NCBI GenBank assembly: GCA_005888635.1
Contig: VBAW01000017.1
Coordinates: 4,537-68,536 of the forward strand
Direction of reading: 5' to 3'
Source of the DNA: Candidatus Bathyarchaeota archaeon
GTDB taxonomy: Archaea; Thermoproteota; Bathyarchaeia; 40CM-2-53-6
DNA: 64,000 nucleotides
The position numbers and the translations under genes were made by a program. The notes beneath the pieces were generated by a model that saw only the letters and a program-made list of their open reading frames with translations, did no database searches and was not told the origin of the DNA. Below, piece by piece: positions 4,907-29,152 of this stretch. Numbering within the stretch: the first letter of the stretch is position 1; the number at the start of each line of letters is the position of its first letter.

Positions 4907-5039
4907 TGGCGGGCCCGCCGGGAATTGAACCCGGGACAGCCGGGTGTCTTCCGCGAGGTAAAAGCTTCACCAGAGATAGCTCTTCCGGTGCTCTACCTCT
5001 TCAGGATCCCTGTTAGGAATCTGGCTGAGCTACGGGCCC
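4907..5039 (-). tRNA. tRNA-Lys (anticodon UUU) with three inferred introns and an encoded CCA
   Basis: Minus-strand exons reassemble to GGGCCCG TA GCTC AGCCAGGTA GAGC A CCGGG CTTTTAA CCCGG CTGTC CCGGG TTCAATT CCCGG CGGGCCC G CCA, 74 nt plus CCA. Inferred introns are 23 nt in the D-loop (about 5020-4998), 19 nt inside the anticodon stem (4984-4966) and 13 nt at canonical position 37/38 (4958-4946). The anticodon lies at 4962-4960. Confidence 0.8.
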
Positions 5040-10326: not shown

Positions 10327-10935
10327 CTATCGCTGTGTGGCTATAGGAGATACTGGTGCAGGCATCGTGATTCGGAACTCGTTGGGACCCACGATCTGCG
10401 CGAATACTTGGTGCTCGCTCAGTCCAATGTCGACCTGAGTGTTAACCAAGTCCTTGAGAAGGGCTTTCACTGCTTCGCTGTAGAACAGCGATGCCTTTCG
10501 GCCGAAACCGTGGTTCAGTATTACAGTTGTCAGGTGGCCATCGTTGGTATATTCGAAACGGAACGCTTTGCCGTATCTGGGACCGAGTAGCTCTAGGGCT
10601 CGCACTGATGTTTCAAGGTCTACCCTCTTGAAGAGGAAGGCTATCAGGTCCTTGGCCAGGTTCTTTCCGAACCAACTGCCAAGCTCTTTGGCCTGTTCGT
10701 CAGTTGTATAGCCTACCAGCTTCTCGAAAATGTCCGAGGGCAGGGTGACGAAGCCCAGGCGGTCGGCAAAGACGTCCCACTCGACGAATTTCCGTAGGGC
10801 TTGGTTTGCGAAATAGTTGACGCTTACACGCTGTTCATGTGCTAATTTTTCGAGCTGGAAGTCGATGTCCTCGTCGATTCGGATAGTTCTAGTGACGCTC
10901 TTTGTCTTATTCTTGAACTGATAGCTTCTCAACAT
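10327..10935 (-). CDS. RHH-domain protein with a conserved ~130-aa C-terminal domain (paralogue of 14260..14841)
   Basis: 202 aa with an N-terminal RHH-like segment, RTIRIDEDIDFQLEKLAHEQRVSVNYFANQALRKFVEW. By eye it aligns over its full length with the 193-aa ORF at 14260..14841, for example ILNHGFGRKASLFYSEAVKAL versus ILRHSMGLSASAYYGASFKAL. Confidence 0.6.
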   Translation of the reverse strand: MLRSYQFKNKTKSVTRTIRIDEDIDFQLEKLAHEQRVSVNYFANQALRKFVEWDVFADRLGFVTLPSDIFEKLVGYTTDEQAKELGSWFGKNLAKDLIAFLFKRVDLETSVRALELLGPRYGKAFRFEYTNDGHLTTVILNHGFGRKASLFYSEAVKALLKDLVNTQVDIGLSEHQVFAQIVGPNEFRITMPAPVSPIATQR

Positions 10936-11409: not shown

Positions 11410-11781
11410 ATGGTTTCTATTATTCACGCTCCGCCTCAGGAGATCGTAGTCACCGGCCTCACGAGCTTCAATTCTCAGCAGAACCTCGCCTCTATGATTG
11501 CCTTCGTCATGAACGTCTCTGGCCAGGCCATGGCACTATACTGGGCGGAAGGGGTCGTATTCTTAGCTGATTTTGTCGAGCCGGAGGCTCTGCCTGATGA
11601 ATATGTCAAGGGAAAGATCTATGCCTCCAACGTCTCGCACGCTCCAATGGCCAAGTACAGCAACCTCATCCGGGTGGGAAACATGGAAGTACCCGTCATC
11701 GACGTCTCATCAAACATTGCTCTGCGAGACTTGGCTCAGTGGATACGTGAGAATCACCAGTCCGCGTCCGACAAATCTTAA
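11410..11781 (+). CDS. Hypothetical protein
   Basis: 123-aa ORF with an ATG start. A GATATAG box sits about 25 nt upstream, which suggests a leaderless transcript. No recognisable domain. Confidence 0.45.
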   Translation: MVSIIHAPPQEIVVTGLTSFNSQQNLASMIAFVMNVSGQAMALYWAEGVVFLADFVEPEALPDEYVKGKIYASNVSHAPMAKYSNLIRVGNMEVPVIDVSSNIALRDLAQWIRENHQSASDKS

Positions 11782-11810
11782 CTAATCACTCAAGCCCGGA
11801 TGGCCTCGGT

Positions 11811-12003
11811 CCCGGGGTAGCTCAGCCTGGAAGAGCTTCCGGCTGTAGTCCTGCACTCAACGTGCGGGTCAGCCAGCCGACCAGGCGTACAGATACCGGA
11901 GTGGAGAAGGTTCCACGGATTGTCGCCGGAGAATCGGACGTAACCGGTTCGGCGAGTTCAAAGTAGAGGTTTTCCCTCTATGGAACTCCGGCCCCCGGGA
12001 CCA
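11811..12003 (+). tRNA. tRNA-Tyr (anticodon GUA) with up to four inferred introns and an encoded CCA
   Basis: Has a C1-G72 acceptor pair (CCCGGGG/CCCCGGG) and discriminator A73, which are archaeal tRNA-Tyr identity features. Exon 1 is 11811-11848 and ends in the loop CTGTAG (anticodon 11845-11847). A 46-nt canonical intron lies at 11849-11894, followed by A38 and CCGGA. Further inferred introns are 11902-11920 (variable loop), 11930-11956 (53/54) and 11963-11986 (59/60). Removing them gives GCCGG TTCAAAT CCGGC, whose loop and 3' strand match the M. jannaschii tRNA-Tyr T-arm as I recall it. Confidence 0.85.
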
Positions 12004-14259: not shown

Positions 14260-14841
14260 CTATGACTGCTTGGTCAGTTGCTCTTTGAGGGTCTTTGGAG
14301 CTACCGTCTTCAGCGTGCTAGCGCTACTGATTTTACATGTCATTTGATCTTCGCTCTCCTCCAATTCGCATTTCACTCCGAGGCGGTCACAGAGTGCTTT
14401 GAAAGAGGCACCGTAGTATGCTGATGCGCTAAGTCCCATGCTGTGCCTTAGGATTATGGTGCGACTCTCCTTATCCCCGAACTCTGAATAGACATAGGCG
14501 TTTGCGTATTCTGCGCCTATCACCTCGAAGGTTTTGAGAACAGAGTCTAGGTCGAACTTGCGGAAGTAATAGAGGATAAACTCGACGACCGTATCTTTCC
14601 CATTCTTGGTGCCCATCTCTCTCGCCTCTCCAACGGTGACATGCGACCAGAGCGTTTTCATTAGTCGAGGATCGCTGGTGACCAGTTTGAAGCTGTCGAC
14701 GTATCTTCCCCATTCTATGTATCGTCGTATTGCTCTGTTGACGAGCACGTTGACCTCCAGATTATGACCGCCTACCATCTTGTCTATTTTCTCGCTGACG
14801 TCGGGGTCGATGGTGAAGGTCCTGCGCGTACGTCTTTCCAA
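14260..14841 (-). CDS. RHH-domain protein, paralogue of 10327..10935
   Basis: 193 aa with the N-terminal segment RTFTIDPDVSEKIDKMV...EVNVLVNRAIRRYIEW. The same C-terminal domain is conserved in the paralogue. Confidence 0.6.
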   Translation of the reverse strand: MERRTRRTFTIDPDVSEKIDKMVGGHNLEVNVLVNRAIRRYIEWGRYVDSFKLVTSDPRLMKTLWSHVTVGEAREMGTKNGKDTVVEFILYYFRKFDLDSVLKTFEVIGAEYANAYVYSEFGDKESRTIILRHSMGLSASAYYGASFKALCDRLGVKCELEESEDQMTCKISSASTLKTVAPKTLKEQLTKQS

Positions 14842-20208: not shown

Positions 20209-20337
20209 TGGCGGGCCCGCGGGGATTTGAACCCCGGACCTCTAGCCGGAGATTTTTCTCGAATCTCCTACAGCTGACTCCGATGGTGAAACCCCACTTA
20301 GGGGGCTGCCGCTCTATCCAGGCTGAGCTACGGGCCC
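20209..20337 (-). tRNA. Multi-intron tRNA, isotype unresolved (best parse gives loop CUUUCAA, Glu-UUC, tentative)
   Basis: On the minus strand the 5' part reads GGGCCCG TA GCTC AGCCTGGATA GAGC and the 3' part reads CGGGG TTCAAAT CCCCG CGGGCCC G CCA. Between them are 74 nt where 23 are expected. My parse is G GCAGC C [12 nt] TTTCA [11 nt CCATCGGAGTC] A GCTGT AG [28 nt] GTC. The 11-nt element resembles the 13-nt 37/38 intron of tRNA-Lys (CCTCGCGGAAGAC). Confidence 0.7.
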
Positions 20338-21531: not shown

Positions 21532-22848
21532 CTAAGTTAGTATCTTTGCCATTTCTTCCACTACTCGATTCTTCGGAACGTTTCTTTCCTCGCCAGTCTT
21601 CATGTCTCTCAACCGCACATTGCCCTCCTTGAGCTCTCTAGGACCTACAATCACAATGATTCGAACCTTGGCCGAGTCGGCATAATCCATCTGTTTTTTC
21701 AATGGACGCTCTTTGAGATCTCTGTCCGCGCGCAGTCCGCTATCTCGCAACGCTCGCATCACCTTGATGGTCTCGTCTCGCACGTCTTCGCCTGCCATTG
21801 CAACGTAGACCTGTGGATTCTGTTCCAGATCTGGGAAGAGCCCCTTCTTTTCGAGGGAGATCATGAGCCTCTCGAAGCCCCCTGCCACGCCGGTTGCAGG
21901 CATGTCTCGTTTTCCGTATATTCGACAGAGCTTGTCGAAACGGCCACCGCCAAACACGGCACCGACATCCTCGCCAGCTTGATCGTACGCTTCGAAGACT
22001 GTTCCGTCGTAGTAGCTTATCCCTCTCACAATTCTTAGGTCCACTTGGACCTTGGACCTTTTTCCTAGGGAGTCGACGTTGTCAATGGTTCCTGTGAGTT
22101 CCTGTAGTCCTTTGCTGATCAAGTCATTCTTCGGGAGTTTCTTCTCTAGATCGGGTAGGACTTTGTCGGCGTCTCCGCCGATATCAGCGAACCCCATGAC
22201 GCGTTTCACTTTGTCTTGGGAGAGCCCCGCTCTGCCTAGTTCTCCTTCGATCTGTTCGGGACCCTTTTTGCCCATTCCGTCGATGATTCGTAGCAATCTC
22301 TCGAGTTCCTCTTGTGAGCGGACGCCTATGGTCTGGAGGAACCCTTCTGCGAGTTTTCTGTTGCTGACTCGGACTTCGTGATCTTTCAATCCGACTTTGT
22401 CTAGAATGTCGGAACCTAGGCTGATGATCTCCGCATCAGCAGTGGGTTCAGCTACTCCATAGATTTCCGCGTCCCATTGTGTGTGGTATCTGTATCTGGC
22501 GTATTGTGGCTCGTCGTATCGCCAGACTCCTCCGATGCATCCGATCTTTATGGGTTCAGGAAGGTCGAATCGGTTGGCGATCATCCGGGTCATGCCGACC
22601 GTTAAGTCGAATCGGAGACCCAGGTTTCGCCCTGCTTTGTCTTTGAACCAGTAGATTTCTTCTCGCACTCCGGGGCCAGATTTTGCTTCGAGAGTCTCAA
22701 GATTTTCCACTGGGCTGGGCTCTAACAGTTGGAACCCGTAGCTCCAGAGTACTTGGCGGATTTTGTCAGCGAGCCAAATTCTCTTGGTCATCTCTTCCGG
22801 TTCTATGTCCTTCATTCCGCGGGGGAGTGTGAATTGAGTCTCAGACAA
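21532..22848 (-). CDS. hisS: Histidine--tRNA ligase
   Basis: 438 aa with the class II aaRS/HisRS motifs LPRGMKD, RYDEPQ..RYR, DAEIYG and GGGRFDKL, plus a C-terminal anticodon-binding domain. Confidence 0.92.
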   Translation of the reverse strand: MSETQFTLPRGMKDIEPEEMTKRIWLADKIRQVLWSYGFQLLEPSPVENLETLEAKSGPGVREEIYWFKDKAGRNLGLRFDLTVGMTRMIANRFDLPEPIKIGCIGGVWRYDEPQYARYRYHTQWDAEIYGVAEPTADAEIISLGSDILDKVGLKDHEVRVSNRKLAEGFLQTIGVRSQEELERLLRIIDGMGKKGPEQIEGELGRAGLSQDKVKRVMGFADIGGDADKVLPDLEKKLPKNDLISKGLQELTGTIDNVDSLGKRSKVQVDLRIVRGISYYDGTVFEAYDQAGEDVGAVFGGGRFDKLCRIYGKRDMPATGVAGGFERLMISLEKKGLFPDLEQNPQVYVAMAGEDVRDETIKVMRALRDSGLRADRDLKERPLKKQMDYADSAKVRIIVIVGPRELKEGNVRLRDMKTGEERNVPKNRVVEEMAKILT

Positions 22849-22872: not shown

Positions 22873-23418
22873 TTATTGGGATTGGAAAGTCTCAGGGTTC
22901 AACGTGTAGTAGACGATGTCTGTGCGCCGATCAATGACGGCCAACACCAGGTCCTTGCCATCCTTGTTTGCTTTCGCTGACAAAGTTGCGAGTTTTTCGA
23001 GTGTAGACTCTCCCCCCTCGAACACAATAGTTACAAGCCTTCTGACGGCTCCCTTACCGAAGGTTTCGAAATCGTAGCCCGCTTCTCCATCCCGGACCAA
23101 GTATCCCCGGTCCCGAAGGTCTCTGTAGACCAGATACTTTGTCCATATGGCGGGCTTCCCTACCGATAGCTTCGTCACCAGCTGCTGAAGCGACTTGGAC
23201 TGCTTGGTCTTCTCGTCCAAGACTTTGATCCTCTTCTTCTCAACGAGGTAGAAGGTTTCGTAGGGATTGAGTGTGATTCTGTCGTCGACTAGAGTTCCGA
23301 ACGCTTTCTCGCGGAGGTCCATCAGTTTCTCAGGTTCTCGGAGAAAGACTCCTCCCCTGGAAAGATAGGCCTCGATTGCCTCAACGATAACCGGTACTTG
23401 CTCGCTCTTGGTTTCCAA
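22873..23418 (-). CDS. tRNA-splicing endonuclease (EndA) family subunit, probably non-catalytic/structural
   Basis: Collinear with M. jannaschii EndA as I recall it: KYLVYRDLRDRGYLVRDG versus KYLVYKDLRTRGYIVKTG, and LVLAVIDRRTDIVYYTL versus LLIAIVDADGDIVYYNM. The positions aligning to catalytic Tyr115 and His125 read Phe (DFETF) and Arg/Leu (VRRLVTIV). The longest ORF reaches 23496, but the TTG at 23418 gives 181 aa, close to EndA size. It sits 24 nt upstream of hisS on the same strand. Confidence 0.65.
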   Translation of the reverse strand: METKSEQVPVIVEAIEAYLSRGGVFLREPEKLMDLREKAFGTLVDDRITLNPYETFYLVEKKRIKVLDEKTKQSKSLQQLVTKLSVGKPAIWTKYLVYRDLRDRGYLVRDGEAGYDFETFGKGAVRRLVTIVFEGGESTLEKLATLSAKANKDGKDLVLAVIDRRTDIVYYTLNPETFQSQ

Positions 23419-23452
23419 AGGGTTCCAGAAAGTCGAGCACGCGGACGGGCGG

Positions 23453-23460
23453 CTATAAAG
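23453..23460. promoter_or_regulatory. Possible shared TATA element between the divergent endA-like and mtnA genes
   Basis: CTATAAAG on the plus strand reads CTTTATAG on the minus strand. It lies about 40 nt from the mtnA ATG (23497) and about 37 nt from the proposed TTG (23418). Confidence 0.25.
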
Positions 23461-23496
23461 CCATTCAAATAGAAAGACGCGGCGACTAGAAATCAA

Positions 23497-24534
23497 ATGA
23501 CCGGCAAGAATCTGGAGCCCTTGAGATGGCGCAACGGCGTATTGGAAGTCATAGACCAGACTCTCCTACCAGCCAAGCTAGCCTACGTCCGTTTGGGAAA
23601 TGTCGGACAGGTCTGTGCCGCGATCAGAACGATGATGGTTCGTGGGGCACCTCTGATCGGGGTTGTGGGCGCCTACGGCCTCGTCCTTTCGGTGAAGAAA
23701 GTCAAGACACGCGATCTAGCCGAGGCTCGAACTCAGCTCCGGAAATGGGCCGATCTTCTGATCCAGACTCGGCCCACAGGTGTGAATCTTCGATGGGCAG
23801 TAGAACGAGTCTTCAACGCCTCTACCAAAGCGGGAGACGTTTCGTCATTGAAAGAGGTACTCCTGAAGGAAGCAGATGCAATTTTCAATGGTGAGTTAGA
23901 GGCTGCTCGAAGAATTGGGAAATATGGGTCCGCACTCTTGGAGGATGGTGACACGGTTCTTACTCATTGTAATGCTGGCGCCCTCGCGACTGTTGGCTAC
24001 GGAACATCCCTCGCCGTAGTTAGAGCCGCCGTGGAGCAGGGAAAGCGGATCAGTGTGATAGCAACAGAGACTCGTCCGTTACTCCAGGGATCGAGGCTGA
24101 CAGCGTTCGAACTAGCGCATGACAAGATTCCGGTGAAAATCATCGTTGACAGTGCAACCGCCCAGATGATGGCGCGGGGTGCAGTGGACAAGATTCTCGT
24201 TGGCGCAGATCGAATATTGAAGACCGGTCACGTGACAAACAAGATTGGCACTCTGCCTATTGCATTGTCCGCGAAGTTTTATGGCGTCCCGTTCTACGTG
24301 GCTGCTCCAGTCTCCACTGTCGACATGGTTACGGACCCTTCGAGGGTTGTTATCGAAGAGCGAAACCAGCGAGAGGTTCTCTATGTTGCTGGGAGGAGGG
24401 TTGCACCGCGGAGTGTCGAGGCGCTGAATCCGGCGTTTGACGTTACTCCGCCCGAGTTAGTGACGAGCATTGTTACGGATAGGGGGATGGCTGGTCCGCC
24501 GTTTGTGGAGAGCCTACGCTCGTTGTCCAGGTGA
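23497..24534 (+). CDS. mtnA: S-methyl-5-thioribose-1-phosphate isomerase / eIF-2B-like ribose-bisphosphate isomerase family
   Basis: 345 aa with LEVIDQTLLP, MMVRGAPLIGV, THCNAGALATVGYGTSLAVVRAA and GADRILKTGHVTNKIGT. Confidence 0.85.
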   Translation: MTGKNLEPLRWRNGVLEVIDQTLLPAKLAYVRLGNVGQVCAAIRTMMVRGAPLIGVVGAYGLVLSVKKVKTRDLAEARTQLRKWADLLIQTRPTGVNLRWAVERVFNASTKAGDVSSLKEVLLKEADAIFNGELEAARRIGKYGSALLEDGDTVLTHCNAGALATVGYGTSLAVVRAAVEQGKRISVIATETRPLLQGSRLTAFELAHDKIPVKIIVDSATAQMMARGAVDKILVGADRILKTGHVTNKIGTLPIALSAKFYGVPFYVAAPVSTVDMVTDPSRVVIEERNQREVLYVAGRRVAPRSVEALNPAFDVTPPELVTSIVTDRGMAGPPFVESLRSLSR

Positions 24535-29049: not shown

Positions 29050-29152
29050 TGGCGGGCCCGGTGGGATTCGAACCCACGATTTTGGGCTCTCTTCACTCTG
29101 AAATCGAAAGCTCCGAAGGCCCACGTCTTGGTCCTGGCTCGACTACGGGCCC
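29050..29152 (-). tRNA. tRNA-Arg (anticodon UCG) with a canonical 24-nt intron and an encoded CCA
   Basis: The minus strand reads GGGCCCG TA GTCG AGCCAGGACCA AGAC G TGGGC CTTCGG [24 nt, 29112-29089] A GCCCA AAATC GTGGG TTCGAAT CCCAC CGGGCCC G CCA. The intron 3' segment GAAG pairs with loop CTTC, as expected for a bulge-helix-bulge (BHB) splice motif. Confidence 0.85.

Follow-up and report, generated by a model that had tools for sequence, protein, structure and literature searches.

At positions 11811-12003 of the plus strand, the window (the whole 64-kb stretch of DNA that was analysed) contains a 193-nt locus with the sequence of a tRNA-Tyr(GUA) gene that is interrupted by four introns (Table 1). 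The locus begins with CCCGGGG TA GCTC AGCCTGGAA GAGC T TCCGG CTGTAG, and this part is followed over the next ~150 nt by ACCGGAG, TGTCGCCGG, TTCAAA, and TCCGGC CCCCGGG A CCA, in this order and with spacers of 46, 19, 27, and 24 nt. The acceptor stem is formed by CCCGGGG and CCCCGGG, and the anticodon loop by CTGTAG and an A on the other side of the first spacer. C1 (11811) pairs with G72 (11999), and the discriminator A73 at 12000 is followed by an encoded CCA. C1-G72 and A73 are identity elements for archaeal and eukaryal TyrRS. When the four spacers (46+19+27+24 nt) were excised in silico, ARAGORN called the remaining 77 nt as tRNA-Tyr(gta) with every stem perfectly paired. The features on which the first-pass annotation had based the tyrosine identity, i.e., C1-G72, A73, CTGTAG, and the anticodon GUA, are all present in the sequence and agree with this call. 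The predicted mature product is a class-I tRNA of 74 nt plus CCA, with spliced junction sequences such as CTGTAGACCGGAGTGTCGCCGGTTCAAATCCGGCC.

Standard tRNA finders did not detect the gene. The unspliced locus gave no tRNA call with ARAGORN or with Rfam, either at the gathering threshold or at E≤10. On the whole unspliced window, ARAGORN returned zero tRNA calls, while Rfam called two other tRNAs. No second tRNA-Tyr was found within the 64-kb window using Rfam and further checks, and no ORF of ≥80 aa overlaps the locus. An Rfam match to SNORD101 near the locus, on the opposite strand (E=5.2; 14.9 bits), was taken as a chance match. The exons match those of single-intron tRNA-Tyr genes in 16 other Bathyarchaeia/Nitrososphaeria MAGs, consistent with orthology, and the gene is present on >100 independent contigs from several studies, which argues against an assembly artefact. 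Judged from its sequence, the locus is a real tRNA-Tyr gene that is missed by standard tRNA finders.

The motif CTTAACTA upstream of the gene is located at the same distance from the tRNA in nearly all of the ~80 relatives listed. This motif could be a TATA-like box; it also overlaps the TAA stop codon of the upstream ORF 11410-11781 (+), and its conservation could partly reflect the end of this ORF. As had been proposed in the first-pass annotation, the leader GGT is complementary to the encoded ACC. In the relatives, T-1 and G-2 are nearly universal, while G-3, and with it the full GGT, is present in approximately half. CCA is genomically encoded in all relatives listed.

We note that ORF 11410-11781 has no Pfam match and that its 3' end (...ENHQS...KS*) is kept just upstream of tRNA-Tyr in most relatives. 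Two ORFs that flank the tRNA-Tyr region, at 10327-10935 (-) and 14260-14841 (-), are paralogous (27% identity over 187 aa; E=5e-31) and match no Pfam family except for a sub-threshold HicB-like N-terminal match.

Table 1. Coordinates of the tRNA-Tyr locus and of other genes in the window that are discussed in the text (introns are lettered by their site in the clade; the helices H, h, and h' are defined in the text)
Feature	Position	Strand	Remarks
Motif CTTAACTA, candidate TATA-like promoter element	11777..11784	+	-34 to -27 from the mature 5' end
5' leader GGT	11808..11810	+	Complementary to A73-C74-C75
tRNA-Tyr exon 1	11811..11848	+	Positions 1-37: acceptor 5' strand, D-arm, anticodon stem 5' strand, loop CTGTAG, anticodon GTA; identical in all relatives
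tRNA-Tyr intron B	11849..11894	+	Canonical, 37/38, 46 nt; hBH motif
tRNA-Tyr exon 2, ACCGGAG	11895..11901	+	Positions 38-44, 7 nt
tRNA-Tyr intron C	11902..11920	+	Variable loop, 44/45, 19 nt; relaxed HBh' motif
tRNA-Tyr exon 3	11921..11929	+	Positions 45-53, 9 nt: TGTC and T-stem 5' strand GCCGG
tRNA-Tyr intron D	11930..11956	+	53/54, 27 nt; HBh' motif
tRNA-Tyr exon 4, micro-exon TTCAAA	11957..11962	+	Positions 54-59, 6 nt
tRNA-Tyr intron E	11963..11986	+	59/60, 24 nt; HBh' motif, full hBHBh' once intron D is out
tRNA-Tyr exon 5	11987..12003	+	Positions 60-73: T, T-stem 3' strand CCGGC, acceptor 3' strand CCCCGGG, A73; plus CCA at 12001-12003
tRNA-Lys(UUU)	4907-5039	-	Three BHB introns; spliced 77-mer is a perfect cloverleaf
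tRNA-Lys D-loop intron	5022-4999	-	H 4/4, h' 7
tRNA-Lys 30/31 intron	4984-4966	-	H 4/4, h' 4, h 4
tRNA-Lys 37/38 intron	4958-4946	-	Canonical, 13 nt
tRNA-Arg(CCU)-like	20209-20337	-	Anticodon CCT; two introns
tRNA-Arg(CCU)-like canonical intron	20298-20276	-	
tRNA-Arg(CCU)-like 43/44 intron	20269-20242	-	Variable-loop edge; H 4/4, h' 7
EndA-family ORF	22873..23496	-	~11 kb from tRNA-Tyr; start codon uncertain; PF01974 (4.8e-13) and PF02778
tRNA-Arg(UCG)	29050-29152	-	One canonical 24-nt intron; full hBHBh' at 29112-29089

Homologous genes and intron-lacking alleles

A first scan with the exact 5'-exon pattern, using one genome per species, identified 18 loci, all in Bathyarchaeia/"Nitrososphaeria" MAGs. 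With two further scans and one metagenome scan, the total increased to at least 143 loci with the clade-specific 5' exon. Complete homologous genes numbered at least 126, at least 83 of them distinct, and these genes have lengths of 160-250 nt and derive from soil Bathyarchaeia MAGs and metagenomes. In 16 loci of the first scan, the canonical intron (~42-46 nt) is the only one, and the 3' half is the contiguous sequence ACCGGAGTGTCGTCGGTTCAAATCCGGCCCCCGGGA or a close variant; this 3' half of the single-intron outgroup is nearly identical to the spliced product predicted for the window. By contrast, the four insertions of the window all recur in L010 from the soil MAG BA_7, with a few substitutions, all of which are within the insertions.

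Among the matches listed, all parsed genes give one 74-nt mature sequence, in which C65T is the only variation. Introns in the clade occupy five sites, which we refer to as A (30/31), B (37/38), C (44/45), D (53/54), and E (59/60). The distinct genes listed have the architectures AB-DE (32 genes), ABC-E (28), -BCDE (13), -BC-E (4), AB--E (3), and ABCDE (3), and the gene in the window is of the -BCDE type. The genes with five introns are L030 (1447-1696; 250 nt), L084 (223 nt), and L091 (232 nt). Intron C is absent from 35 of the distinct genes listed as well as from all outgroup genes, the exons being otherwise identical, and intron D is absent from 35 of the distinct genes listed. Because clade genes without A, C, or D read straight through, these three junctions are each confirmed by natural alleles; similarly, the outgroup genes that do not have the 59/60 intron confirm junction E. 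Thus, the four splicing events suggested in the first-pass annotation are supported by intron-lacking natural alleles, in addition to BHB motifs at the exact junctions and compensatory changes in the intron helices.

Exons and introns differ sharply in variability. In the alignments, 1 of 74 exon columns is variable, compared to 31 of 36 (A), 50 of 63 (B), 38 of 38 (C), 13 of 28 (D), and 28 of 30 (E) intron columns, where the exon invariance is partly fixed by the search, which specified 31 nt at the 5' end and 8 nt at the 3' end and left ~35 positions free. Invariant exons together with variable introns indicate purifying selection on the exons and support a functional gene from which the inserts are removed rather than a pseudogene. 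The alternative that the locus is a decaying tRNA pseudogene with insertions, and that the real tRNA-Tyr gene lies elsewhere in the genome, would account for the lack of a call by standard detectors and draws on the fact that the sequence in view is 64 kb of a genome. However, over at least 83 distinct genes the exons are invariant while the introns are free to vary, the insertions keep BHB geometry and show compensatory changes, and conservation extends to the upstream motif and the encoded CCA. Moreover, a scan for the contiguous, intron-free 3' half matched 7 outgroup MAGs only and 0 of the soil-clade species-representative genomes, so that no intron-free copy is evident in the clade, and the window has no other tRNA-Tyr gene. 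Based on these data, we give the pseudogene alternative next to no weight.

L091 combines A, B, and C introns like those of the ABC-E group with D and E introns that are nearly identical to those in the window; on sequence similarity, this mix may reflect recombination of alleles or descent from an ancestor with five introns. We also observed that a core of the canonical tRNA-Tyr intron, TCAGCC..N..CAGGC, which forms a small hairpin, is kept across distant Bathyarchaeia/Nitrososphaeria (L001-L018 and intron B of the window). Such conservation is unusual for an intron.

Splice motifs at the exon-intron junctions

The first-pass annotation had proposed that each exon-intron junction be scored for BHB motifs. 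In the model that we used, the central helix H pairs exon positions i-5..i-2 with intron positions j-2..j-5, each of the two 3-nt bulges is cut between its second and third bases, the intron helix h' extends from i+2:j-6, and the exon helix h extends from i-6:j+2. Among the 14,820 possible pairs of 5' and 3' splice sites in the gene, only 3 have H 4/4 together with an h' of ≥6 bp, and these 3 are the 53/54 junction, the 59/60 junction, and a 1-nt slide of the 53/54 junction. The agreement of junctions D and E with these BHB pairs is well beyond chance, and the introns of 27 and 24 nt previously placed at these sites coincide exactly with two of the three pairs. Overall, the motifs at B, D, and E are exact (H 4/4), while that at C is relaxed (3/4).

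Intron B, for which the suggested length of 46 nt held, has the H CTGT/ACAG (4/4) and the 3-nt bulges AG|T and AT|A, and its outer helix h is the anticodon stem (6 bp). Among the matches listed, this H is paired in 95% of 46 distinct contexts vs 26-64% with the 3' partner slid. Intron D has the H CGCC/GGCG (4/4), the bulges GG|A and AG|T, and a 7-bp h' hairpin; among the matches listed, H and h'1-5 are paired in 100% of 35 contexts, and h'4 occurs as CG, TG, or TA. Intron E has the H TTCA/TGGA (4/4), the bulges AA|G and AC|T, and a 6-bp h' hairpin, and its outer helix in genes without intron D has GC/GC/CG at the three outer pairs. Intron C in the window has the H CCG(G)/(A)CGG (3/4), located on the 3' strand of the anticodon stem, and the h' GGA(G)/(T)TCC (4 bp); it has no exon-side outer helix and fits the BHB model only with the 5' site after G44. 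This register is fixed by L027, in which H is CCGG/CTGG (4/4) and h' is TGGC/GCCA, also with the 5' site after G44. For the variable-loop intron, therefore, the length of 19 nt and the product GTGTC given in the first-pass annotation stand, while its register of 11904-11922 is corrected to 11902-11920 by the relatives. All four motifs have a closing helix of at least 2 bp, and that of intron E is joined by the T-stem after removal of intron D.

The same geometry is kept in the relatives. Across the distinct genes among the matches listed, the proportion with a paired H is 99% for A, 95% for B, 81% for C, 100% for D, and 98% for E, and sliding the 3' partner by 1-3 nt decreased H pairing to 11-75% across introns A-E. 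Covariation was counted on gap-free anchored alignments with shuffle and slide controls, and phylogenetic relatedness is still contained in the resulting statistics. For intron E, 95.5% of the cells are paired vs 24-58% when slid, double changes occur in three of four h' pairs, and the covariation is 0.365 vs 0.270 in shuffled alignments (reached in 0/500 shuffles). For intron C, 85.4% of the cells are paired vs 21-50% when slid, double changes occur in all four h' pairs, and the covariation is 0.439 vs 0.137 in shuffled alignments (reached in 0/500 shuffles). The slide control and the variety of pair types, e.g., GC/CG/UA at h'1 of intron C, argue for a real structural constraint.

Because intron C has the weakest BHB motif, with H at 3/4 in the window and 81% pairing in the relatives, we considered that the insertion could be retained as a class-II-like long variable arm, leaving only three splicing events. 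The hairpin GTGGA/TCCAC formed by the insertion and the textbook assignment of bacterial tRNA-Tyr to class II would be in line with such an arm, whereas archaeal tRNA-Tyr is, again according to textbooks, class I. The insertion is also precisely absent at 44/45 in the genes without intron C described above, it has a length of 18-28 nt and a sequence that varies at all alignment columns, and the bases that directly follow the hairpin on its 3' side can still pair with positions 39-42 in the BHB register, a pairing that collapses upon sliding. These observations make a retained arm very unlikely, and we maintain that the insertion is an intron.

A gene model with fewer or different introns would either use ACCGG at 11943-11947 for the T-stem or join two of the proposed introns into a composite one. 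The CCGG-rich sequence permits many alternative pairings, and the BHB-like pair 11845/11927 scores well on geometry alone. A relaxed enumeration of BHB excisions screened with ARAGORN likewise returned many acceptable products; these were dozens of poor tRNAs with many identities, and the enumeration was too permissive to rank models. However, the products of such models are unlike any homologous tRNA-Tyr, and introns C and D are present or absent independently of each other and, therefore, represent separate units. The ACCGG sequence itself was rejected as a T-stem strand: it lies inside the intron D hairpin, varies in the relatives, and is gone together with intron D in the 35 genes listed. 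We consider a model of this kind extremely improbable. Altogether, it is very likely that the locus serves a soil archaeon of the Bathyarchaeia as its functional tRNA-Tyr(GUA) gene and has four protein-spliced introns.

Order of splicing and the candidate endonuclease

We propose that the gene is transcribed as a precursor of ~190 nt that would include the encoded CCA. Each intron would offer EndA its BHB substrate, i.e., a 4-bp helix with two 3-nt bulges that are cut between nucleotides 2 and 3, closed by either the intron hairpin (HBh') or the exon helix (hBH). Cleavage by EndA and ligation, presumably by an RtcB-type enzyme, at the four sites would then give the class-I 74-nt tRNA plus CCA. 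Removal of intron D is predicted to create the T-stem and, in this way, to complete the motif of intron E as hBHBh', and the cut-and-ligate cycles would proceed stepwise with refolding in between.

Three features suggest that splicing is probably stepwise. First, the exons between the introns are only 6-9 nt long (7, 9, and 6 nt). Second, the central helix of intron D is formed on positions 48-51, the 5' strand of the T-stem, which becomes available for intron E upon removal of D. Third, the central helix of intron C is formed on positions 39-42, the 3' strand of the anticodon stem that is needed by the motif of intron B. RNAfold at 37 C gave low probabilities for most of the 4-bp central helices; since the helix of the canonical intron was also near 0, folding does not discriminate between candidate junctions. 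When the precursor and all splicing intermediates were folded, the outer helix of intron E (the T-stem) reached a probability of 0.95 only after intron D was removed.

Simultaneous excision of all four introns is conceivable in view of the self-contained HBh' motifs that introns D and E have in the primary transcript. In that case, once both sides were cut, exons of 6, 7, and 9 nt would be kept in place by ~4 bp only, and the central helices of C and D would compete for strands needed by the motifs of B and E, both of which argue indirectly against simultaneous excision. [quoted passage not shown] We regard simultaneous excision as unlikely and favor stepwise splicing.

An ORF of the EndA family is located on the minus strand of the window (Table 1). 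We take the catalytic triad of M. jannaschii EndA to be Tyr115/His125/Lys156. In the EndA-like protein, the catalytic Tyr is replaced by Phe, the His-bearing loop is deleted, and the Lys is kept, based on PDB and clade protein alignments. The M. jannaschii EndA sequence served solely as a probe in tblastn, and the residue calls were made from the PDB alignment. Using tblastn, we also identified the EndA homologue in 8 relatives, where it is syntenic and within a few kb of the tRNA-Tyr gene. Among solved structures, those of the enzymes from M. kandleri and M. jannaschii come closest (PDB alignments 1a79, 5x89). All NCBIfam matches are below the cut-off and are to the N-terminal repeat of dimeric enzymes, which is non-catalytic, and, weakly, to beta subunits. 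No catalytic EndA subunit was found in the 64-kb window or in the loci of the relatives that were examined. These comparisons suggest that the EndA-like protein probably serves a heteromeric splicing endonuclease as a structural subunit, and it may have a role in splicing of tRNA-Tyr. Heteromeric EndA is the enzyme type associated with relaxed BHB substrates (PMC4090602, PMC4033280). We note that the neighbors of the EndA-like ORF encode a histidyl-tRNA synthetase (21532-22848, -) and an IF-2B-family protein (23497-24534, +).

Comparison with known multi-intron tRNA genes

Well-documented features of crenarchaeal tRNA genes are non-canonical BHB introns at 30/31, 45/46, 53/54, and 59/60 and the occurrence of two or three introns in one gene (PMC4090602). 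Multi-intron tRNA genes were reported in Thermoproteales, e.g., Pyrobaculum, Thermofilum, and Caldivirga, by Sugahara et al. 2007/2008, as summarized in PMC4033280 and PMC8450103. Like these genes, the tRNA-Tyr gene described here is colinear, combines canonical and non-canonical BHB/HBh' introns, shares with its clade the use of sites already on record, such as 30/31, 53/54, and 59/60 (PMC4090602), and gains or loses introns between close relatives; multi-intron genes in Thermoproteales are associated with a broad-specificity heteromeric EndA. Unlike them, it has four introns, and relatives have five, in contrast to the stated maximum of three; the host is a soil, presumably mesophilic, member of the Bathyarchaeia and not a hyperthermophile; the variable-loop site is 44/45 instead of the listed 45/46; and three introns are placed within the last 30 nt of the tRNA.

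The introns of nuclear tRNA genes in C. merolae are also of the BHB type and include T-loop and variable-arm sites, but this alga is a eukaryote, has a maximum of three introns per gene, and has permuted genes in addition, while there is no permutation at the locus described here (PMC3728597). The junction positions of split and tri-split tRNAs in Nanoarchaeum equitans and Caldivirga maquilingensis overlap the intron positions, and their joining is BHB dependent; unlike in those trans-spliced tRNAs, all exons are present in order in one 193-nt locus, which supports splicing in cis. The single-intron tRNA-Tyr genes of other Bathyarchaeia (L001-L018) have the same 5' exon, nearly the same 3' half, and a homologous canonical intron of 42-46 nt, while they have no introns at 30/31, 44/45, 53/54, and 59/60.

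The maximum for archaeal tRNA genes has been given as three introns per gene (PMC4033280, 2014; PMC8450103, 2021). The first-pass annotation had named the same maximum, in agreement with these sources, but it underestimated the phenomenon in that relatives have five introns. The gene in the window, with four introns, and L030, L084, and L091, with five, exceed the limit of at most three that applies to the multi-intron genes described so far. A search of the full-text literature, in which most subscription journals lie outside the searchable part and an earlier description is, therefore, possible, returned no report on archaeal tRNAs with four or five introns or on tRNA introns in Bathyarchaeota. 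Thus, the mechanism is already known, and what is new is the number of introns, the presence of three of them in the last 30 nt, the 44/45 site, and the host lineage. The highest number of protein-spliced introns seen in a tRNA gene rises from three to four with the gene in the window and to five with its relatives, and intron proliferation is extended from hyperthermophilic Thermoproteales to a widespread soil lineage. The natural series of alleles with three, four, and five introns and identical exons offers a system for studying intron gain and loss and splicing order as well as how exons of 6-9 nt stay in place and the substrate range of the endonuclease.

The other three tRNA genes in the window have 1, 2, and 3 BHB introns, which brings the total to 10 introns in 4 genes, or 2.5 per gene. 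By comparison, Thermoproteales have 0.84 tRNA introns per gene, and the record holder P. calidifontis has 71 in 46 genes. It is conceivable that the tRNA genes of the clade are the most intron dense known, that the tRNA-Tyr gene descends from a five-intron ancestor with precise losses of A, C, or D in its lineages, and that maturation follows an obligatory, conformation-switching order of splicing, as exons of only 6-9 nt would require. We advance this combined reading tentatively, as somewhat short of an even chance. If true, intron proliferation would not be tied to hyperthermophily, and a large share of the tRNA genes in these MAGs would be invisible to routine annotation. The three-intron tRNA-Lys(UUU) gene gave no call with Rfam (gathering threshold) or ARAGORN; because these programs miss both this gene and tRNA-Tyr, the tRNA complements of Bathyarchaeia MAGs, and hence their quality scores, will be undercounted.

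In each of the four tRNA genes of the window, CCA is genomically encoded. In the tRNA-Arg(CCU)-like gene, the anticodon loop after splicing is CCCCTAA, in which position 33 is C and not the near-universal U.
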